Source: Patescibacteria group bacterium
Lineage (GTDB): Bacteria; Patescibacteriota; Microgenomatia; UBA12405
DNA: 36,577 nucleotides
NCBI GenBank assembly: GCA_023380755.1
Contig: JAMCSD010000004.1
Span: 1 to 36,577, forward strand
Direction: 5' to 3'
Part shown: positions 20,569 to 27,314 of the stretch, piece by piece
Layout of the letters: every line of letters starts with the position of its first letter
Numbering within the stretch: position 1 is the first letter of the stretch
Made by a program: the position numbers and the translations under genes
The notes under the pieces: model-generated
What the model was told of the DNA's origin: nothing
What the model saw: only the letters and a program-made list of their open reading frames with translations
Database searches by the model: none

Positions 20569-20628
20569 GGAGAGAATTTGATCTCCAAAATAAAAGATTT
20601 AGCCAAAGAATAAAGGAAACAGGAAGTG

Positions 20629-20699
20629 AGACCCGGATGGGAGTTGAACCCATCTGAACGGTTTTGCAGACCGCTGTCTAACCGCTTGACTACCGGGTC
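20629..20699 (-). tRNA. tRNA-Cys(GCA), CCA not encoded
   Basis: Acceptor GACCCGG/CCGGGTC, anticodon arm GCGGT-CTGCAAA-ACCGT, T-loop GTTCAAC, discriminator U. Confidence 0.93.
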
Positions 20700-20749
20700 A
20701 AAAGAGGACGTGGCCTATTGTAACAATAAAATTTACGAGAAGCATTAGG

Positions 20750-21490
20750 CTAGAGTTTGTGAGAAGAACTACCCATACGGACGAATTTTACAGGGGTTTG
20801 GCAAGACTGCCGGATCTGGCGAGACATGGTCCGGTCAATGTCGGCATCACCAAAGTAATACACGAGATCAGGAGGAGAGGATAGGTTGTTAACCAGCTCC
20901 AAAAAATTGGCGACGGGATCAGCAGAAGTTTTGCCACTTTGGACATGGAGCTTGCTGACCCAATTATCTTCGAGCTTAAAGTCACCCAAATGAGCGATGC
21001 GCTCCTCATGGCGGGGGCGGATCAAAGGAAAATGGCGGGTAAGTAAGGCCCAAAGCTCCTCGGGTACGCCAAGAGGCGGCGTGTCGGCCACAGGAATGCG
21101 GCCAGTAAAAATTTCGGCCACAGCGGAGGCGCGGGTAACTTCATGAATAAACCGGTAACCAGCCCGAAAGTCGGTACGACGAGCATCAGCGGAAAGGTAG
21201 GGAGTAAAAGGATAAGGAAAAACTGAGCCATCAAGATCCATCAGGCTAACGATGTGGGGTGGCTGACCGGCGGCAAGCTGCCGGGCGAGGCGGCATTCAT
21301 AAGGATTAATTTCCAAGGTAGTGTGGGAAAGCCGGGGATTAAGGAGGGGTAAAATCGTCGCCCCAAGGGCGTGGTGTAAGGTTTCCTGATGGGTACGTTC
21401 AGCAACCATGATTTCCCATTCGGAGTTAGAGCTAACGGGAGCATGGTCGATGGCAGGAAAAAGTTCGACGGAAGAAGAGACTTCGGACAT
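20750..21490 (-). CDS. HAD-superfamily-like hydrolase with N-terminal extension
   Basis: LMDLDGS (motif I), FTGR (motif II), YFGDADID (motif IV). Confidence 0.6.
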   Translation of the reverse strand: MSEVSSSVELFPAIDHAPVSSNSEWEIMVAERTHQETLHHALGATILPLLNPRLSHTTLEINPYECRLARQLAAGQPPHIVSLMDLDGSVFPYPFTPYLSADARRTDFRAGYRFIHEVTRASAVAEIFTGRIPVADTPPLGVPEELWALLTRHFPLIRPRHEERIAHLGDFKLEDNWVSKLHVQSGKTSADPVANFLELVNNLSSPPDLVYYFGDADIDRTMSRQIRQSCQTPVKFVRMGSSSHKL

Positions 21491-21506
21491 GTACGCTCAT
21501 GGTAAC

Positions 21507-21536
21507 AAAAAATCCTCCCGGTGACTACCGGGAGGA
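21507..21536 (-). terminator. Intrinsic terminator of groESL
   Basis: 10-bp perfect stem TCCTCCCGGT/ACCGGGAGGA, 4-nt loop, six T on the minus strand, 60 nt after the groEL stop. Confidence 0.85.
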
Positions 21537-21551
21537 GGAGAAATAAACATC

Positions 21552-21580
21552 ACCCCGGTGTCGCAAAGCCTCACCGGGGT
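21552..21580 (-). other. Second GC-rich hairpin in the groEL 3' UTR
   Basis: ACCCCGGTG (21552-21560) pairs with CACCGGGGT (21572-21580); 11-nt loop; no U-tract. Confidence 0.7.
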
Positions 21581-21596
21581 AGTTTCGATGACTCAA

Positions 21597-23258
<1,662 letters not shown>

Positions 23259-23274
23259 TTAGGTTAAATTATAA

Positions 23275-23577
23275 TTATTTAACAATTGCCATAATATCTT
23301 CGAACTTTAAGATAAGGTATTCGACATCATTGACCTTGTATTCTTTGCCACCCCACTCACGATAAACAACGGTATCACCAACAGTGCAAGGAGCAGTTTT
23401 TTTGGTACCATAGTCAGTAACAAAATCAGCACCAACGGCTAAAACCTCGCCTTCTTGAGGTTTTTCTTCGTGGGATTCAGGCAAGACGATGCCAGAAGCA
23501 GTGACTTTTTCTTTTTTCTTGGGTTGAACTAACAAATAACCGGGTACGGGGAGGATGGGTGCAGTCGATTTGGCCAT
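23275..23577 (-). CDS. groS: Co-chaperonin GroES
   Basis: TASGIVLP mobile loop, GEVLAVG, VGDTVVY...GGKEYK; directly upstream of groEL. Confidence 0.97.
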   Translation of the reverse strand: MAKSTAPILPVPGYLLVQPKKKEKVTASGIVLPESHEEKPQEGEVLAVGADFVTDYGTKKTAPCTVGDTVVYREWGGKEYKVNDVEYLILKFEDIMAIVK

Positions 23578-23601
23578 ATATAGTTAGAAAGTAATAAATA
23601 A

Positions 23602-23628
23602 TTATCAGTCTAATAAATTGACTGCTAA
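23602..23628 (-). promoter_or_regulatory. CIRCE-like HrcA operator upstream of groES
   Basis: Minus strand TTAGCAGTC-N9-GACTGATAA (canonical TTAGCACTC-N9-GAGTGCTAA), immediately downstream of a -10 box. Confidence 0.85.
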
Positions 23629-23629
23629 T

Positions 23630-23657
23630 ATTATATCTATGGTTTCGAATCCCGCAA
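23630..23657 (-). promoter_or_regulatory. Housekeeping-sigma promoter of groESL
   Basis: Minus strand TTGCGG-16 nt-TATAAT. Confidence 0.65.
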
Positions 23658-23691
23658 GTAGTTAATTAGTTAGCAGTAGAATCAAATAAGG

Positions 23692-24504
23692 ATGGATTTA
23701 ATTAAAAGCGGCCAGGTTCAAGGCAGTTATTTTTGGTATTTAAAAAACGACCGTTTTATTGGCCAAAGGATTGCGTTGGATAAATATGAACCCTATATAA
23801 CAAAGTTATTTTTGGAATATGCCGAAGAAGAAGGGGCAGCGGCGGATGTAGGGGCTAATATTGGCTATGATACGGTACTTTTGTCCAAGAGGGCGAAAAA
23901 GGTCTATGCCTTTGAACCGGATAAAGACAATTATAAAATACTGGTCAAAAACTTGACGGAAAACACAGTGACCAACGTAGCGGCTTATCAAGCAGCGGTG
24001 GGCAGTAAGGGGGGAGAAATTACTTTATATAAATCAAGGGAAAATTTAGGCGACCACAGGGTGTTCCGGTCAGAAGAACGGAACGGAGAAAAGGTGAGGC
24101 TGGTGAAATTGGACGAAATTATTCTGGAAAGAGTCGGGCTAATTAAAATTGATACCCAAGGATTTGAGCCGGCGGTGATGGAGGGCGCGAAAAATATAAT
24201 ATATCGGGATAGGCCAACAATTTTTTGGGAATATTGGCCGTGGGCTTACAAACAGGCGGGGTTGGATTATCAAAAGATGATTAAATTTTTGGAAGATATC
24301 TACGGGCAAATTTATTATATTGATGAATATATCCAGATCATTCGGAAGGTAGATCAAAAATGGCTGGATAGCCATTTTCCGGAGAATGACGAGAGTAAAC
24401 AAGGGAACTTAATGGTGAGTACGAAATTGGATATTATTAAACAATATAAAGATTTTTGGCCGAAAAAATGGTTGAAAAGGAAACTGGGATATCCCCTCAC
24501 CTAA
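23692..24504 (+). CDS. FkbM family SAM-dependent methyltransferase
   Basis: YEP, DVGANIG, YAFEP, KIDTQGFE and RPTIFWEY motifs. Confidence 0.88.
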   Translation: MDLIKSGQVQGSYFWYLKNDRFIGQRIALDKYEPYITKLFLEYAEEEGAAADVGANIGYDTVLLSKRAKKVYAFEPDKDNYKILVKNLTENTVTNVAAYQAAVGSKGGEITLYKSRENLGDHRVFRSEERNGEKVRLVKLDEIILERVGLIKIDTQGFEPAVMEGAKNIIYRDRPTIFWEYWPWAYKQAGLDYQKMIKFLEDIYGQIYYIDEYIQIIRKVDQKWLDSHFPENDESKQGNLMVSTKLDIIKQYKDFWPKKWLKRKLGYPLT

Positions 24505-24506
24505 GG

Positions 24507-25448
24507 ATGAAACAACGTCAAGAGATAGTGGAGACATTTTGGTACATAGCGGCAGAACGACAAAAGATATTTTTTAATAAACTGCGAGGAATTTGTCCGT
24601 TAACCACGGACCCGATTTTGCGAGAATACAAATTTTGCAATAGTTATCGGGCCTCAGATCGGGTGTCGCAATTTTTAATTAAAAAAGTAATTTACGAAAA
24701 TAATAATTTAAGGGAAGAAGATTTATTGTTACGCATATTACTGTTTCGATTACTGAATAAAAATGAAACTTGGATGGCATTAGAAAATAAAATCGGGATA
24801 ATTACTAAAAATAATTTTAAAAAAGAAAAATTGATTAAAGCGCTGGCTAAAATTTCTCGGGCAAAGGGAGTAATTTATGGCAATGCGTTTATATTGTGTG
24901 CTAATAAATATTTTGGATTTGAAAAAAAATATGAAAATCATTTAGCACTCCTGGAAAAAATATTTAAAGAAAAAATTAACAAAAAAATTTTGGAGGCAAA
25001 AAGTTTACAAGAGTTGTTCGAAATACTTAAAGAACTACCATTGATCGGTGATTTTATGGCGTATCAAATGGCAATTGATTTGAATTACTCCCCTCTTTTT
25101 AATTATGATGAAAATGATTTTGTGGCGGCAGGGCCGGGAGCGAAACGGGGCATCCGAAAATGTTTTGAAAGTTTTGAAGACGAACAAAAAATAATTATGT
25201 GGACGGTGGAAAATCAAGAGAAAGAATTTAAACGCTTGGGGCTTAATTTCCAGGATCTGTGGGGGCGAAAACTGCACGCCATTGACTGCCAGGGGTTGTT
25301 TTGTGAAACGGATAAGTATTGCCGGGTAAAATTCCCGGAATTGAAGAGTAATCGCACCAGAATAAAGACTAAATATCAGCCTGCCAAAGAAAAAATTGAG
25401 TACTTCTACCCACCAAAGTGGGGACTAAATGAACGGATCCGATTATAA
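24507..25448 (+). CDS. aGPT-Pplase1 / 5-hmdU DNA kinase helical-domain-like protein (nucleotide-modification family)
   Basis: Recognised family pattern ERQKIF, DPILREYKFCNSYRASDRVSQ, LFRLLNK, LPLIGDFMAYQMAIDL (HhH-like hairpin), AGPGAKRG, IDCQGLFCETDKY, RIK. Start at ATG 24507, 2 nt after the FkbM stop. Confidence 0.75.
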   Translation: MKQRQEIVETFWYIAAERQKIFFNKLRGICPLTTDPILREYKFCNSYRASDRVSQFLIKKVIYENNNLREEDLLLRILLFRLLNKNETWMALENKIGIITKNNFKKEKLIKALAKISRAKGVIYGNAFILCANKYFGFEKKYENHLALLEKIFKEKINKKILEAKSLQELFEILKELPLIGDFMAYQMAIDLNYSPLFNYDENDFVAAGPGAKRGIRKCFESFEDEQKIIMWTVENQEKEFKRLGLNFQDLWGRKLHAIDCQGLFCETDKYCRVKFPELKSNRTRIKTKYQPAKEKIEYFYPPKWGLNERIRL

Positions 25449-25476
25449 TAGGATACTTAGTGGTTAGCGATAAATC

Positions 25477-26748
25477 ATGTCAAAAATCAAATCCGTCTTT
25501 GCCCGAGAAATTTTAGCCAGCGGCGGAGCGCCGTCGTTGGAAGTGACGGTAACACTGGAAAGTGGCGCCACCGGAGAAGCATCGGTAAGTTACGGAGCGT
25601 CAGCGGGAAGTAAAGAAGCCTACGTGATGGTGGATGGAGATAAATCACGGTACAACGGCAAAGGAATGTTGAAAGCAATTGCCAATATTAACGGAGAAAT
25701 TGCCAAGCTATTGGCCGGACAAGAAGCCAGCAACCAACGGGCAATAGATGAAGCAATGATTAAGGCGGATGGAACGGAAAACAAAAGCCGATTAGGGGGT
25801 AATGCGATGTTGGGAGTATCTTTGGCGATAGCCAGAGCAGAAGCCAATGAAGAAAAAATGCCTTTATATCGGTATTTGAGAAAAACCTACGGTATTGAAG
25901 GAGAAATAATAAAGTTACCCAAACCAATGATTGTGATGATCGAGGGCGGGAAACATGCCGATAACAGTACCGATCTGCAAGAATTTATGGTGGCAACTAT
26001 GGGCGAGCGGCCAGCCAAGGAAAACGTGCGGATGGAAATGGAAATTTATGAGGCAGTTAAAAAACTTTTAAAGGCAGACGGCTTTTCAACCAACGTGGGT
26101 AATGAAGGGGCCTTTGCCCCAGGCGGGATAAAAAGCAACGAGGCGCCGATTCAATACCTAGTAAAAGCGATTGAAGCAGCCGGATACAAACCAGGAATGG
26201 AGGCCGGAGTTTCAATCGATGCGGCCGCTTCGGAGCTGTATAACGAGGAAACGAAGCGATACGCCTTGAAATTGGAAGGGAAAGAATATGCTTCGGAAGA
26301 ATTAATTAATTTCTATTCAGGGTGGATAAATAAATACCCCTTTGTCAGCTGGGAAGATATGCTGTCGGAATTTGACTGGGATAATTGGCCGAAGTTGGTG
26401 GAAGCGATTAACGGTAAATTCCCGTTAATTGCCGATGATCTAACGGTGACTTCTTTAAAATTGTGGAAACAGGCCATTGAAAAGAAGGCAGCGACGGCAA
26501 TTTTGATTAAACTTAACCAAGCGGGAACTTTGACGGAAACAGTCGACTGCTGTTTGCTTGCCCGGGAAAATAATTTCTGGTCAGTCCCCTCCCATCGGGG
26601 CGGCGGGGAAACGAATGATACCTTTATGGTGGACTTAGCGGTGGCGGTGGGGGGTGAATACATTAAAGTCGGGCCGACACGGGGTGAGCGGGTGTGTAAA
26701 TACAACCGGTTGATGCGGATTGAAGAAGAACTAGGAGGGCAACAATAA
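25477..26748 (+). CDS. eno: Enolase
   Basis: GASAG, GGKHAD, QEF, GNEG, DAAASE, WED, ADDL, IKLNQ, SHR, IKVG and KYNRL motifs. Confidence 0.93.
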   Translation: MSKIKSVFAREILASGGAPSLEVTVTLESGATGEASVSYGASAGSKEAYVMVDGDKSRYNGKGMLKAIANINGEIAKLLAGQEASNQRAIDEAMIKADGTENKSRLGGNAMLGVSLAIARAEANEEKMPLYRYLRKTYGIEGEIIKLPKPMIVMIEGGKHADNSTDLQEFMVATMGERPAKENVRMEMEIYEAVKKLLKADGFSTNVGNEGAFAPGGIKSNEAPIQYLVKAIEAAGYKPGMEAGVSIDAAASELYNEETKRYALKLEGKEYASEELINFYSGWINKYPFVSWEDMLSEFDWDNWPKLVEAINGKFPLIADDLTVTSLKLWKQAIEKKAATAILIKLNQAGTLTETVDCCLLARENNFWSVPSHRGGGETNDTFMVDLAVAVGGEYIKVGPTRGERVCKYNRLMRIEEELGGQQ

Positions 26749-27314
26749 TGGCAACGGTCTATCTTTTTCGGCACGGACAATCAGAATTTAATTTGACGAA
26801 AACTTTTACCGGCTGGCTGGATGCTAAACTGACACCCTTAGGAGTGGAACAAGCCAAGGCTTTGGGGGTAATGCTCAAAGATAAGAAAATTGACTTGGCC
26901 TACACCACCCGCCTGTCGCGGGCGGCGGAGACCCTAAAGGAAGTGCTGGCGTACCACCCGGAATGTAAGCAGACAATTGTTGATGACCGAATGATCGAGA
27001 GATCTTATGGCGATTTATCAGGACACACCCATGCGGAAACTATCGAAAAGTACGGCCAAGAACAATTTGATAAATGGCACCGAGGGTGGGCAGATAAGGC
27101 CAATAACGGTGAATCATTTGCCGATGTGGAAGTACGCGTCGGATCATTTATTGAGGATCTGAAAAAACAATATACAGGCAAAGACTTGGGGATAGCCATT
27201 TCAGCTCACGGGAACTCCATCCGATTATTCCGAAAAATAATGGAAAACGCCTCGGTGGAAGAGGTGGTAGCCTGGACAATCCCCTACGATAAATACTTTG
27301 AATATACGATCTGA
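26748..27314 (+). CDS. gpmA: 2,3-BPG-dependent phosphoglycerate mutase (histidine phosphatase family)
   Basis: RHGQSEFN, FTGW, ERSYG and AHGNSIR motifs; TAATG coupling to eno. Confidence 0.85.
   Translation: MATVYLFRHGQSEFNLTKTFTGWLDAKLTPLGVEQAKALGVMLKDKKIDLAYTTRLSRAAETLKEVLAYHPECKQTIVDDRMIERSYGDLSGHTHAETIEKYGQEQFDKWHRGWADKANNGESFADVEVRVGSFIEDLKKQYTGKDLGIAISAHGNSIRLFRKIMENASVEEVVAWTIPYDKYFEYTI

Follow-up and report, generated by a model that had tools for sequence, protein, structure and literature searches.

A solitary HMUDK_hel gene beside a resident FkbM methyltransferase gene in a Patescibacteria genome, most likely neighbours by chance

Contig JAMCSD010000004.1 of a Patescibacteria group bacterium carries, between groES and eno, a gene for an FkbM-family methyltransferase and, directly behind it, a gene for a protein of the HMUDK_hel family. 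Do these two genes work together? An earlier note on this DNA had proposed that they form a cellular base-modification, repair or anti-phage module with the methyltransferase as an unusual partner. We analysed the whole 36,577-bp stretch (the window), which is the entire contig C4 of an 806-kb genome in nine contigs; by its size and its relatives, this genome belongs to the candidate phyla radiation. The most likely answer is that the two genes have separate histories and came to be juxtaposed. In the reading that we prefer, to which we give a probability of about 0.58, FkbM is resident at the locus, and HMUDK_hel is a horizontally acquired, solitary cargo gene whose product would act alone, with FkbM uninvolved. 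The two genes are as follows.

23692-24504, forward strand: FkbM methyltransferase open reading frame (ORF), 270 aa, PF05050/TIGR01444
24507-25448, forward strand: HMUDK_hel ORF, 313 aa, PF18723

The ORFs have the positions and the 2-nt gap that the earlier note gave, and they share a strand. The HMUDK_hel start was set at the ATG that aligns with the N termini of homologs, which yields the length of 313 aa.

The product of the first gene is, from its profile matches, an FkbM-family class I S-adenosylmethionine methyltransferase (PF05050, E 1.1e-19, 71.6 bits with a cut-off of 22.7; TIGR01444, E 4.7e-31, 108.2 bits with a cut-off of 37.7; phrog_8156, E 1.5e-33). In PADLOC it had only a weak generic methyltransferase match. 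Homologs with 40-55% identity were found in 45 of 101 relatives, 42 of them from the same family, and HMUDK_hel was found in 6 of the 101. FkbM keeps its position in about 40 genomes that have no HMUDK_hel, and the order groEL-groES, FkbM, ..., eno was syntenic in 11 of the 12 loci examined. FkbM is a vertically inherited resident of a tRNA-Cys - groEL-groES, FkbM, eno-gpm backbone in this family of the candidate phyla radiation (CPR; Patescibacteria-type). The other parts of this backbone lie in the window as listed below.

20628-20699, reverse strand: tRNA-Cys, belonging to the same backbone
21597-23577, reverse strand: groEL-groES operon, divergent from FkbM, conserved backbone
23275-23577, reverse strand: groES, upstream flank of the FkbM/HMUDK_hel pair
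25477-26748, forward strand: eno, downstream flank of the pair
25477-27314, forward strand: eno and a His_Phos_1 phosphoglycerate-mutase-like gene, conserved downstream backbone

What varies in this backbone is the stretch from FkbM to eno, a slot in which five genomes (G007, G021, G027, G037 and G041) have nothing. G019 has an ORF of 152 aa there and G033 one of 241 aa (NUDIX-like and short-chain-dehydrogenase-like, respectively, judged by eye only), and G031 and G040 have other inserts. HMUDK_hel occupies the slot only in the present genome and in G001, a genome of the same genus. The G+C content of the HMUDK_hel gene is 34.6%, the lowest of the 36 window ORFs and 2.7 standard deviations below their mean (45.0%, standard deviation 3.8); that of FkbM is 40.0%. 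The locally very low G+C content that had been pointed out was found again, with 9 G+C in the 60 bases at 24781-24840. The distribution of the gene in the phylum is patchy (4 of 400 other genomes). Because of its G+C content and its patchy distribution, we regard the HMUDK_hel gene as horizontally acquired, and it would have landed in the variable FkbM-eno slot in an ancestor of the genus.

HMUDK_hel is located at two different points of one backbone of about 4 kb, tRNA-Cys - groESL - FkbM - eno, in two genera (window 20628-26748 and locus L008). In G041, which carries L008 (7356-12674), it lies across groESL from FkbM and abuts tRNA-Cys. In another relative, G026, 43 kb separate it from FkbM. 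The different insertion points and the differing slot cargo make the backbone look like a local insertion hot spot. A search for direct repeats or signs of mobile elements flanking the insert gave nothing convincing. As the earlier note had stated, there are no phage-like genes nearby, at least among the 14 neighbouring ORFs that were scanned or recognised; the neighbours recognised were those for a sigma factor, Exo_endo_phos, groESL, eno, His_Phos_1, AdoMet_dc, a response regulator, NUDIX and MFS, as well as tRNAs.

The earlier note had also described the gene as an orphan, lacking a 5-hydroxymethyluracil-producing thymidylate synthase (ThyA) homolog, a kinase and a transferase, and this orphan status is real: we found none of them in the window, in the genome or in the closest HMUDK_hel-bearing relatives. 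The search of the genome for a dUMP hydroxymethylase, which the note had suggested, gave no match to PF00303 (ThyA-type) in G000, G001, G026, G041 or G154; the control searches with PF00303 were positive in 10 of 14 genomes, and TET/JBP-type thymine dioxygenases were not searched for. G001, G026 and G041 are 96-98% complete. Neither PF18724, the amino acid:DNA transferase (AADT) family, nor PF18748, the P-loop kinase of 5-hydroxymethyldeoxyuridine (5-hmdU) DNA, matched in ten genomes, in genome searches run without a positive control; the PF18724 model detects PaMx11 gp46 at E 1.6e-27. PF02223 (Tmk-like) matches were never near the HMUDK_hel gene, and G000 has none. The Tmk gene beside ThyX in relatives belongs to ordinary dTMP synthesis. 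TIR, Nmad2, Tmk-like kinase, ThyA, MazG_C, DUF1643 and dCTP deaminase (DCD) were absent from the 14 scanned or recognised window neighbours and from 12 CPR loci, and de novo clustering found no recurrent neighbour family in 25 solitary loci (12 CPR and 13 Bacillota). On viral contigs with HMUDK_hel a ThyA homolog was present in 22 of 25 cases, including all 12 of those at least 90% complete, and it lay within 6 kb in 32-34 of 50 viral HMUDK_hel loci. We rejected the idea that HMUDK_hel replaces thymidylate synthase in ThyA-less genomes, since ThyX adjoins Tmk in G001 and G041 and is present in 67 of the 101 relatives. In many genomes of the family ThyX appears as a tandem-duplicated fusion with open frames of about 470-620 aa, in G001 next to Tmk (G001:C3:15177-17274).

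From its sequence, the HMUDK_hel protein is a genuine, intact member of its family. It matched PF18723 over profile positions 2-280 of 281 (E 4.2e-95, 318.7 bits with a cut-off of 25), contained no other domain, and matched phrog_2396 at E 1.3e-54. The profile search thus bears out the assignment to the aGPT-Pplase1/HMUDK_hel family; Pfam HMUDK_hel (PF18723) is clade 1 of the aGPT-Pplases in the literature. PF18723 also scores PaMx11 gp50 (E 5.6e-41), which adjoins the 5-hmdU DNA kinase gp49 and the ThyA-like gp51, and Maynard gp81 (E 3.8e-78), which, judged by its place in the genome, we regard as the homolog of ViI gp160. PaMx11 gp46, the characterised transferase, falls in the separate family PF18724. 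A profile of the relatives of the window protein aligned with PaMx11 gp50 at an hhalign probability of 99%, and the two have in common the motifs FCN..R..D, P..G.FMAY[QE]..D, GPGA.RG and CE.DKY.R. Two elements of the protein are of special interest.

25035-25049, forward strand: codons of LPLIG (residues 177-181), HhH-like hairpin between predicted helices 167-175 and 181-193
25302-25319, forward strand: codons of C266-E267-T268-D269-K270-Y271 (Cys-Glu-x-Asp-Lys-Tyr motif), candidate catalytic centre

The helix-hairpin-helix (HhH)-like LPLIG element that had been read from the sequence is thus located between two predicted helices. G181 is invariant in the family and is followed by the invariant D191 10 residues on and by the near-invariant E202 21 residues on. 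In a comparison of 51 diverse members, including the phage proteins PaMx11 gp50, Maynard gp81 and LuckyBarnes gp38, C266 was conserved in 50, and E267 and K270 were invariant; the Cys-Glu motif is also present in PaMx11 gp50 and Maynard gp81. All of the family-invariant residues (R18, N45, R48, D51, G181, D191, G209, G211, G215, C266, E267 and K270) are kept in the window protein. The protein is basic, with a pI of 9.4. Its AlphaFold (AF2) model, with a mean predicted local distance difference test score (pLDDT) of 93.6, matched in a Foldseek search of BFVD the model of SP10 5-hmdU DNA kinase gp186 (F8WQ30; E 3.6e-13, TMq 0.80), a fusion of a kinase and a helical domain, and it also superposes on viral proteins of PhiW-14 and phiRSL1 and on those named "Pplase1". 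The PDB, searched by sequence and by profile, gave no relevant match, and PADLOC gave none for this protein.

The nearest known counterparts are the phage HMUDK_hel proteins: PaMx11 gp50, M6 gp55, ViI gp160/Maynard gp81, PhiW-14 C9DG43 and the C-terminal half of SP10 gp186. The window protein shares with them the PF18723 domain, the motifs FCN..R..D[RK], P.[IL]G.FMAY[QE]..D, GPGA.RG and CE.DKY.R, and the fold (template modelling (TM) score 0.64-0.80). However, the phage genes stand beside or are fused to a 5-hmdU DNA kinase and nearly always accompany a ThyA-type hydroxymethylase, and the identity is 22-33%. Two enzymes of the phage pathway have been demonstrated, a P-loop kinase and AADT, the transferase of clade 2 (PMC8989533, PMC11472151, PMC13458397). 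In vitro, 5-hmdU DNA was converted to the glycine-thymidine adduct by gp54 (the kinase) and gp51 (the transferase of clade 2) alone, without the clade-1 protein, M6 gp55 (PMC8989533). The earlier statement that the HMUDK_hel family acts in hypermodification was too strong, because it is for the P-loop kinase and for clade 2 that enzyme tests exist.

AADT proteins (clade 2, PF18724: M6 gp51, ViI gp247 and PaMx11 gp46/PUGT, PDB 8z2m) resemble the window protein in being helical and HhH-containing with a distantly related fold, and in having a conserved Cys with a nearby Glu close to the C-terminus. The AADT Cys attacks C6 of 5-phosphomethyl-dU (PMC8989533, PMC11472151). Neither sequence nor profile comparison showed significant similarity between them, however, and the TM score is 0.38-0.40. 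The order of the motif is C-E in the window protein whereas it is E-T-x-x-C in AADT, and the metal-binding Glu-Thr pair of AADT is not conserved here (T268 varies). HhH-GPD glycosylases such as AlkA, OGG and AGOG share with the window protein the HhH element and a weak likeness in fold (Foldseek E 0.17-4, TM 0.3-0.49), but no sequence similarity.

Cellular relatives also occur in gene clusters. In a metagenome contig (L036, 2716-6508), an operon encodes a ThsB-type TIR protein (PADLOC E 7e-47), Nmad2, a fusion of a thymidylate-kinase-like domain with HMUDK_hel, and a ThyA homolog, within a defence-island order of helicase, TIR, Nmad2, kinase-HMUDK_hel, ThyA, TPR, SLATT and PLD/helicase nuclease; it is a candidate nucleotide-modifying defence system. 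In about 20 Nostocales species (L096-L120, L147), HMUDK_hel is extended at its C-terminus (about 390-430 aa in all) and forms a conserved cluster with DUF1643 and MazG_C, frequently joined by DCD; DUF1643 gave no informative match in the PDB. Copies in Actinomycetota have MazG_C and/or ThyA, and copies in Actinobacteria and Bacteroidota have MazG_C, ThyA, TIR or Nmad2. Fusions are frequent among the close relatives (44-50% identity): the added parts are a thymidylate-kinase-like domain at the N-terminus, MazG and MazG_C at the C-terminus, NADAR with an N6/N4 DNA methylase, or a glycosyltransferase. The HMUDK_hel proteins of the TIR-Nmad2-(Tmk-like kinase-HMUDK_hel)-ThyA and Nostocales HMUDK_hel-DUF1643-MazG_C-DCD clusters are 44-56% identical to the window protein, keep all the invariant residues and, like it, stand in a non-viral setting. 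The window gene differs from them in having no partners, in lying amid housekeeping genes and not in a defence island, and in belonging to a separate clade. No such partner occurs in the 12 Patescibacteria loci or, except for one ThyA homolog (L155), in 13 gut Bacillota loci. A cluster with an aGPT-Pplase domain is highlighted by DefensePredictor as an unvalidated defence candidate (PMC13092281).

What might such a protein do alone? The solitary clade would have shed the ThyA-type hydroxymethylase, the P-loop/Tmk-like kinase, the AADT transferase, MazG_C, DUF1643, TIR and Nmad2. The remaining protein is basic, all-helical and similar to an HhH glycosylase. With the LPLIG hairpin as its contact to DNA, it would turn a base of the uracil or thymine type out of the helix; the likeliest such base is 5-hydroxymethylated or otherwise modified at C5. 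The invariant Cys266-Glu267 pair may next work on this base, with a thiolate attacking C6 in the manner of the related amino-acid:DNA transferases. We propose a base-flipping, thiol-dependent enzyme because of the basic character of the protein, the HhH-like hairpin, D191, the GPG loop, the Cys-Glu motif and the Cys chemistry of AADT; it is from these features that we infer its chemistry and substrate. HMUDK_hel would need no partner, and its probable targets are incoming phage DNA or damaged bases; a part in biosynthesis is less likely. A more specific, tentative and less likely version is that the solitary clade, which spans Patescibacteria and seemingly small-genome gut Bacillota, is a one-protein defence that would recognise 5-hydroxymethyluracil-type bases in phage DNA and inactivate it by covalent trapping at Cys266, by base excision or by group transfer, in this genus perhaps with a recruited FkbM.

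Another reading is housekeeping DNA repair, in which the protein would remove 5-hydroxymethyluracil or other oxidised pyrimidines, like a glycosylase, in a repair-poor genome. The HhH-glycosylase-like fold and the basic protein would suit this role, and repair glycosylases are usually solitary as well. An Exo_endo_phos gene, of the apurinic/apyrimidinic endonuclease family, is the divergent neighbour of one CPR homolog, and another lies 3.9 kb upstream in the window. However, the gene is present in about 1-6% of related genomes, unlike a housekeeping gene, and its G+C content looks foreign. The invariant Cys-Glu motif points to attack at C6 and not to cleavage of the N-glycosidic bond, and the closest relatives are found in nucleotide-modification or defence-island clusters. 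A repair role is thus unlikely.

Several points weigh against the reading of HMUDK_hel as a lone, acquired enzyme. The literature on hypermodification establishes no demonstrated activity for any HMUDK_hel member. The fold matches in the PDB are weak (E about 0.2, TM 0.33-0.49), the top one being PaMx11 gp46/PUGT, followed by HhH glycosylases, and Cys266 falls opposite the catalytic Cys247 of PUGT only in a local hhalign match that is not significant. The window genome is just 77% complete, and there are the uncontrolled genome searches for the transferase and the P-loop kinase mentioned above. The two insertions in the same backbone of about 4 kb, in genera g1 and g8, are apparently independent; we tentatively attribute their co-location to a tRNA-adjacent site and a variable slot. 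Finally, there are three points that link the gene to FkbM: the two genes are co-oriented and 2 nt apart; FkbM lies within 2.5 kb of HMUDK_hel in 3 of the 4 family genomes that carry a full-length copy; and, in a search with a hidden Markov model of FkbM proteins, an FkbM-domain gene stood immediately beside HMUDK_hel in 3 of 50 IMG/VR viral loci.

These last points would support a functional two-gene base-modification or defence module, in which, for example, HMUDK_hel presents or activates a C5-substituted pyrimidine and FkbM methylates it. There is also no terminator between the two genes. All three FkbM matches in the viral flanks are immediate neighbours of HMUDK_hel: L061 (4457-7181) has the order TET-associated glycosyltransferase (TAGT)-FkbM-HMUDK_hel-ThyA-HD ... 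UDG-PolA, L078 (5989-9172) has HMUDK_hel-FkbM-Tmk-like kinase-ThyA, and L043 (5914-7597) is the third. These viral clusters also hold a ThyA homolog, a Tmk-like kinase or a TET-associated glycosyltransferase. The presence of FkbM in viral base-modification clusters suggests that some phages methylate a hypermodified pyrimidine. However, the viral FkbM proteins belong to phrog_28597 and phrog_36045 and the CPR one to phrog_8156. Orthology of the CPR FkbM with that of the phage clusters was rejected on account of these different PHROG families and the identity of 27% to the L061 FkbM. The 280-aa and 267-aa neighbours of two CPR homologs were compared as possible relatives of FkbM and are unrelated to it.

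The distribution of the pair also argues against a module. For the survey of FkbM pairing that the earlier note had called for, we took the 80 best HMUDK_hel loci from species-representative genomes with 6-kb flanks, and among the 79 besides that of the window, FkbM was within 6 kb only in the same-genus genome. There the gap between the two genes is 221 nt, as compared with 2 nt in the window. Of nine other genomes with HMUDK_hel, six lack an FkbM domain altogether, and only one shares the adjacency. Together with the persistence of FkbM at this place in most genomes of the family without HMUDK_hel, the occurrence of HMUDK_hel elsewhere in the CPR without FkbM and the unrelated genes in the FkbM-eno slot of other genomes, this leaves the claim of a functional partnership mostly unsupported. 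The viral pairs leave some room for recruitment of FkbM, but a two-gene module is improbable; most likely the two genes stand together by chance, in a slot whose content varies.

The partners of HMUDK_hel could instead be dispersed: their genes might lie at other places in the genome, or an infecting phage or a host organism might provide them. The incompleteness of the genome would allow this, CPR bacteria depend on partner cells, and relatives of the protein work in multi-gene clusters. However, the three nearly complete genomes G001, G026 and G041 have no match to PF00303, PF18724 or PF18748, the sole Tmk gene is beside ThyX, and the solitary loci have no recurrent neighbour, so that a dispersed hypermodification or defence system is quite improbable.

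HMUDK_hel is a large family: 3,824 clusters at 50% identity match it at E<=1e-3, more than 7,500 proteins of the 90% collection match, and relatives are present in no fewer than 582 species genomes. A tree of 51 domains placed the solitary proteins of Patescibacteria in one clade (SH-aLRT 99) with short branches, separate from a mixed clade of fusions and viral proteins, and between distant CPR lineages they are 56-73% identical. Searched with the single window protein, viral sequences yielded no close relative, and in a profile search of viral contigs the best HMUDK_hel copy was 49% identical to it. As far as sequences can tell, the solitary CPR HMUDK_hel is a distinct, monophyletic and slowly evolving clade. 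This conservation, with the ORF intact in all copies, makes it very improbable that the gene is a functionless phage remnant drifting neutrally, as its low G+C content, patchy distribution and absent partners might otherwise suggest.

A further observation concerns a perfect 26-nt inverted repeat between HMUDK_hel and eno.

24841-24866, forward strand: left arm, in a variable surface loop of HMUDK_hel (residues about 112-120, LAKISRAK)
25497-25522, forward strand: right arm, eno codons 7-15 (FAREILASG), conserved in relatives

The arms are 630 nt apart, and no such repeat is expected by chance. The same-genus genome does not have the repeat, and its loop reads LKAIKEEC. The eno arm is the likely donor, and the repeat may be a template-switch patch copied from eno. 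Minimum-energy and centroid folds of the RNA of 24800-25560 both predict the 26-bp duplex, which in a shared transcript could be an RNase III site or influence eno translation.

In conclusion, the outcome for the window itself is mainly corrective, in that the proposed two-gene system is most likely a pair of chance neighbours. Members of the large HMUDK_hel family accompany thymine hypermodification genes in phages and candidate defence clusters in bacteria. The family has already been catalogued, but its solitary clade is distinct, and as an experimental entry the clade is more telling than this locus. Because the solitary clade is the simplest natural form, with one gene, no partner and a minimal genome, it would provide a clean entry point to the function of the domain.

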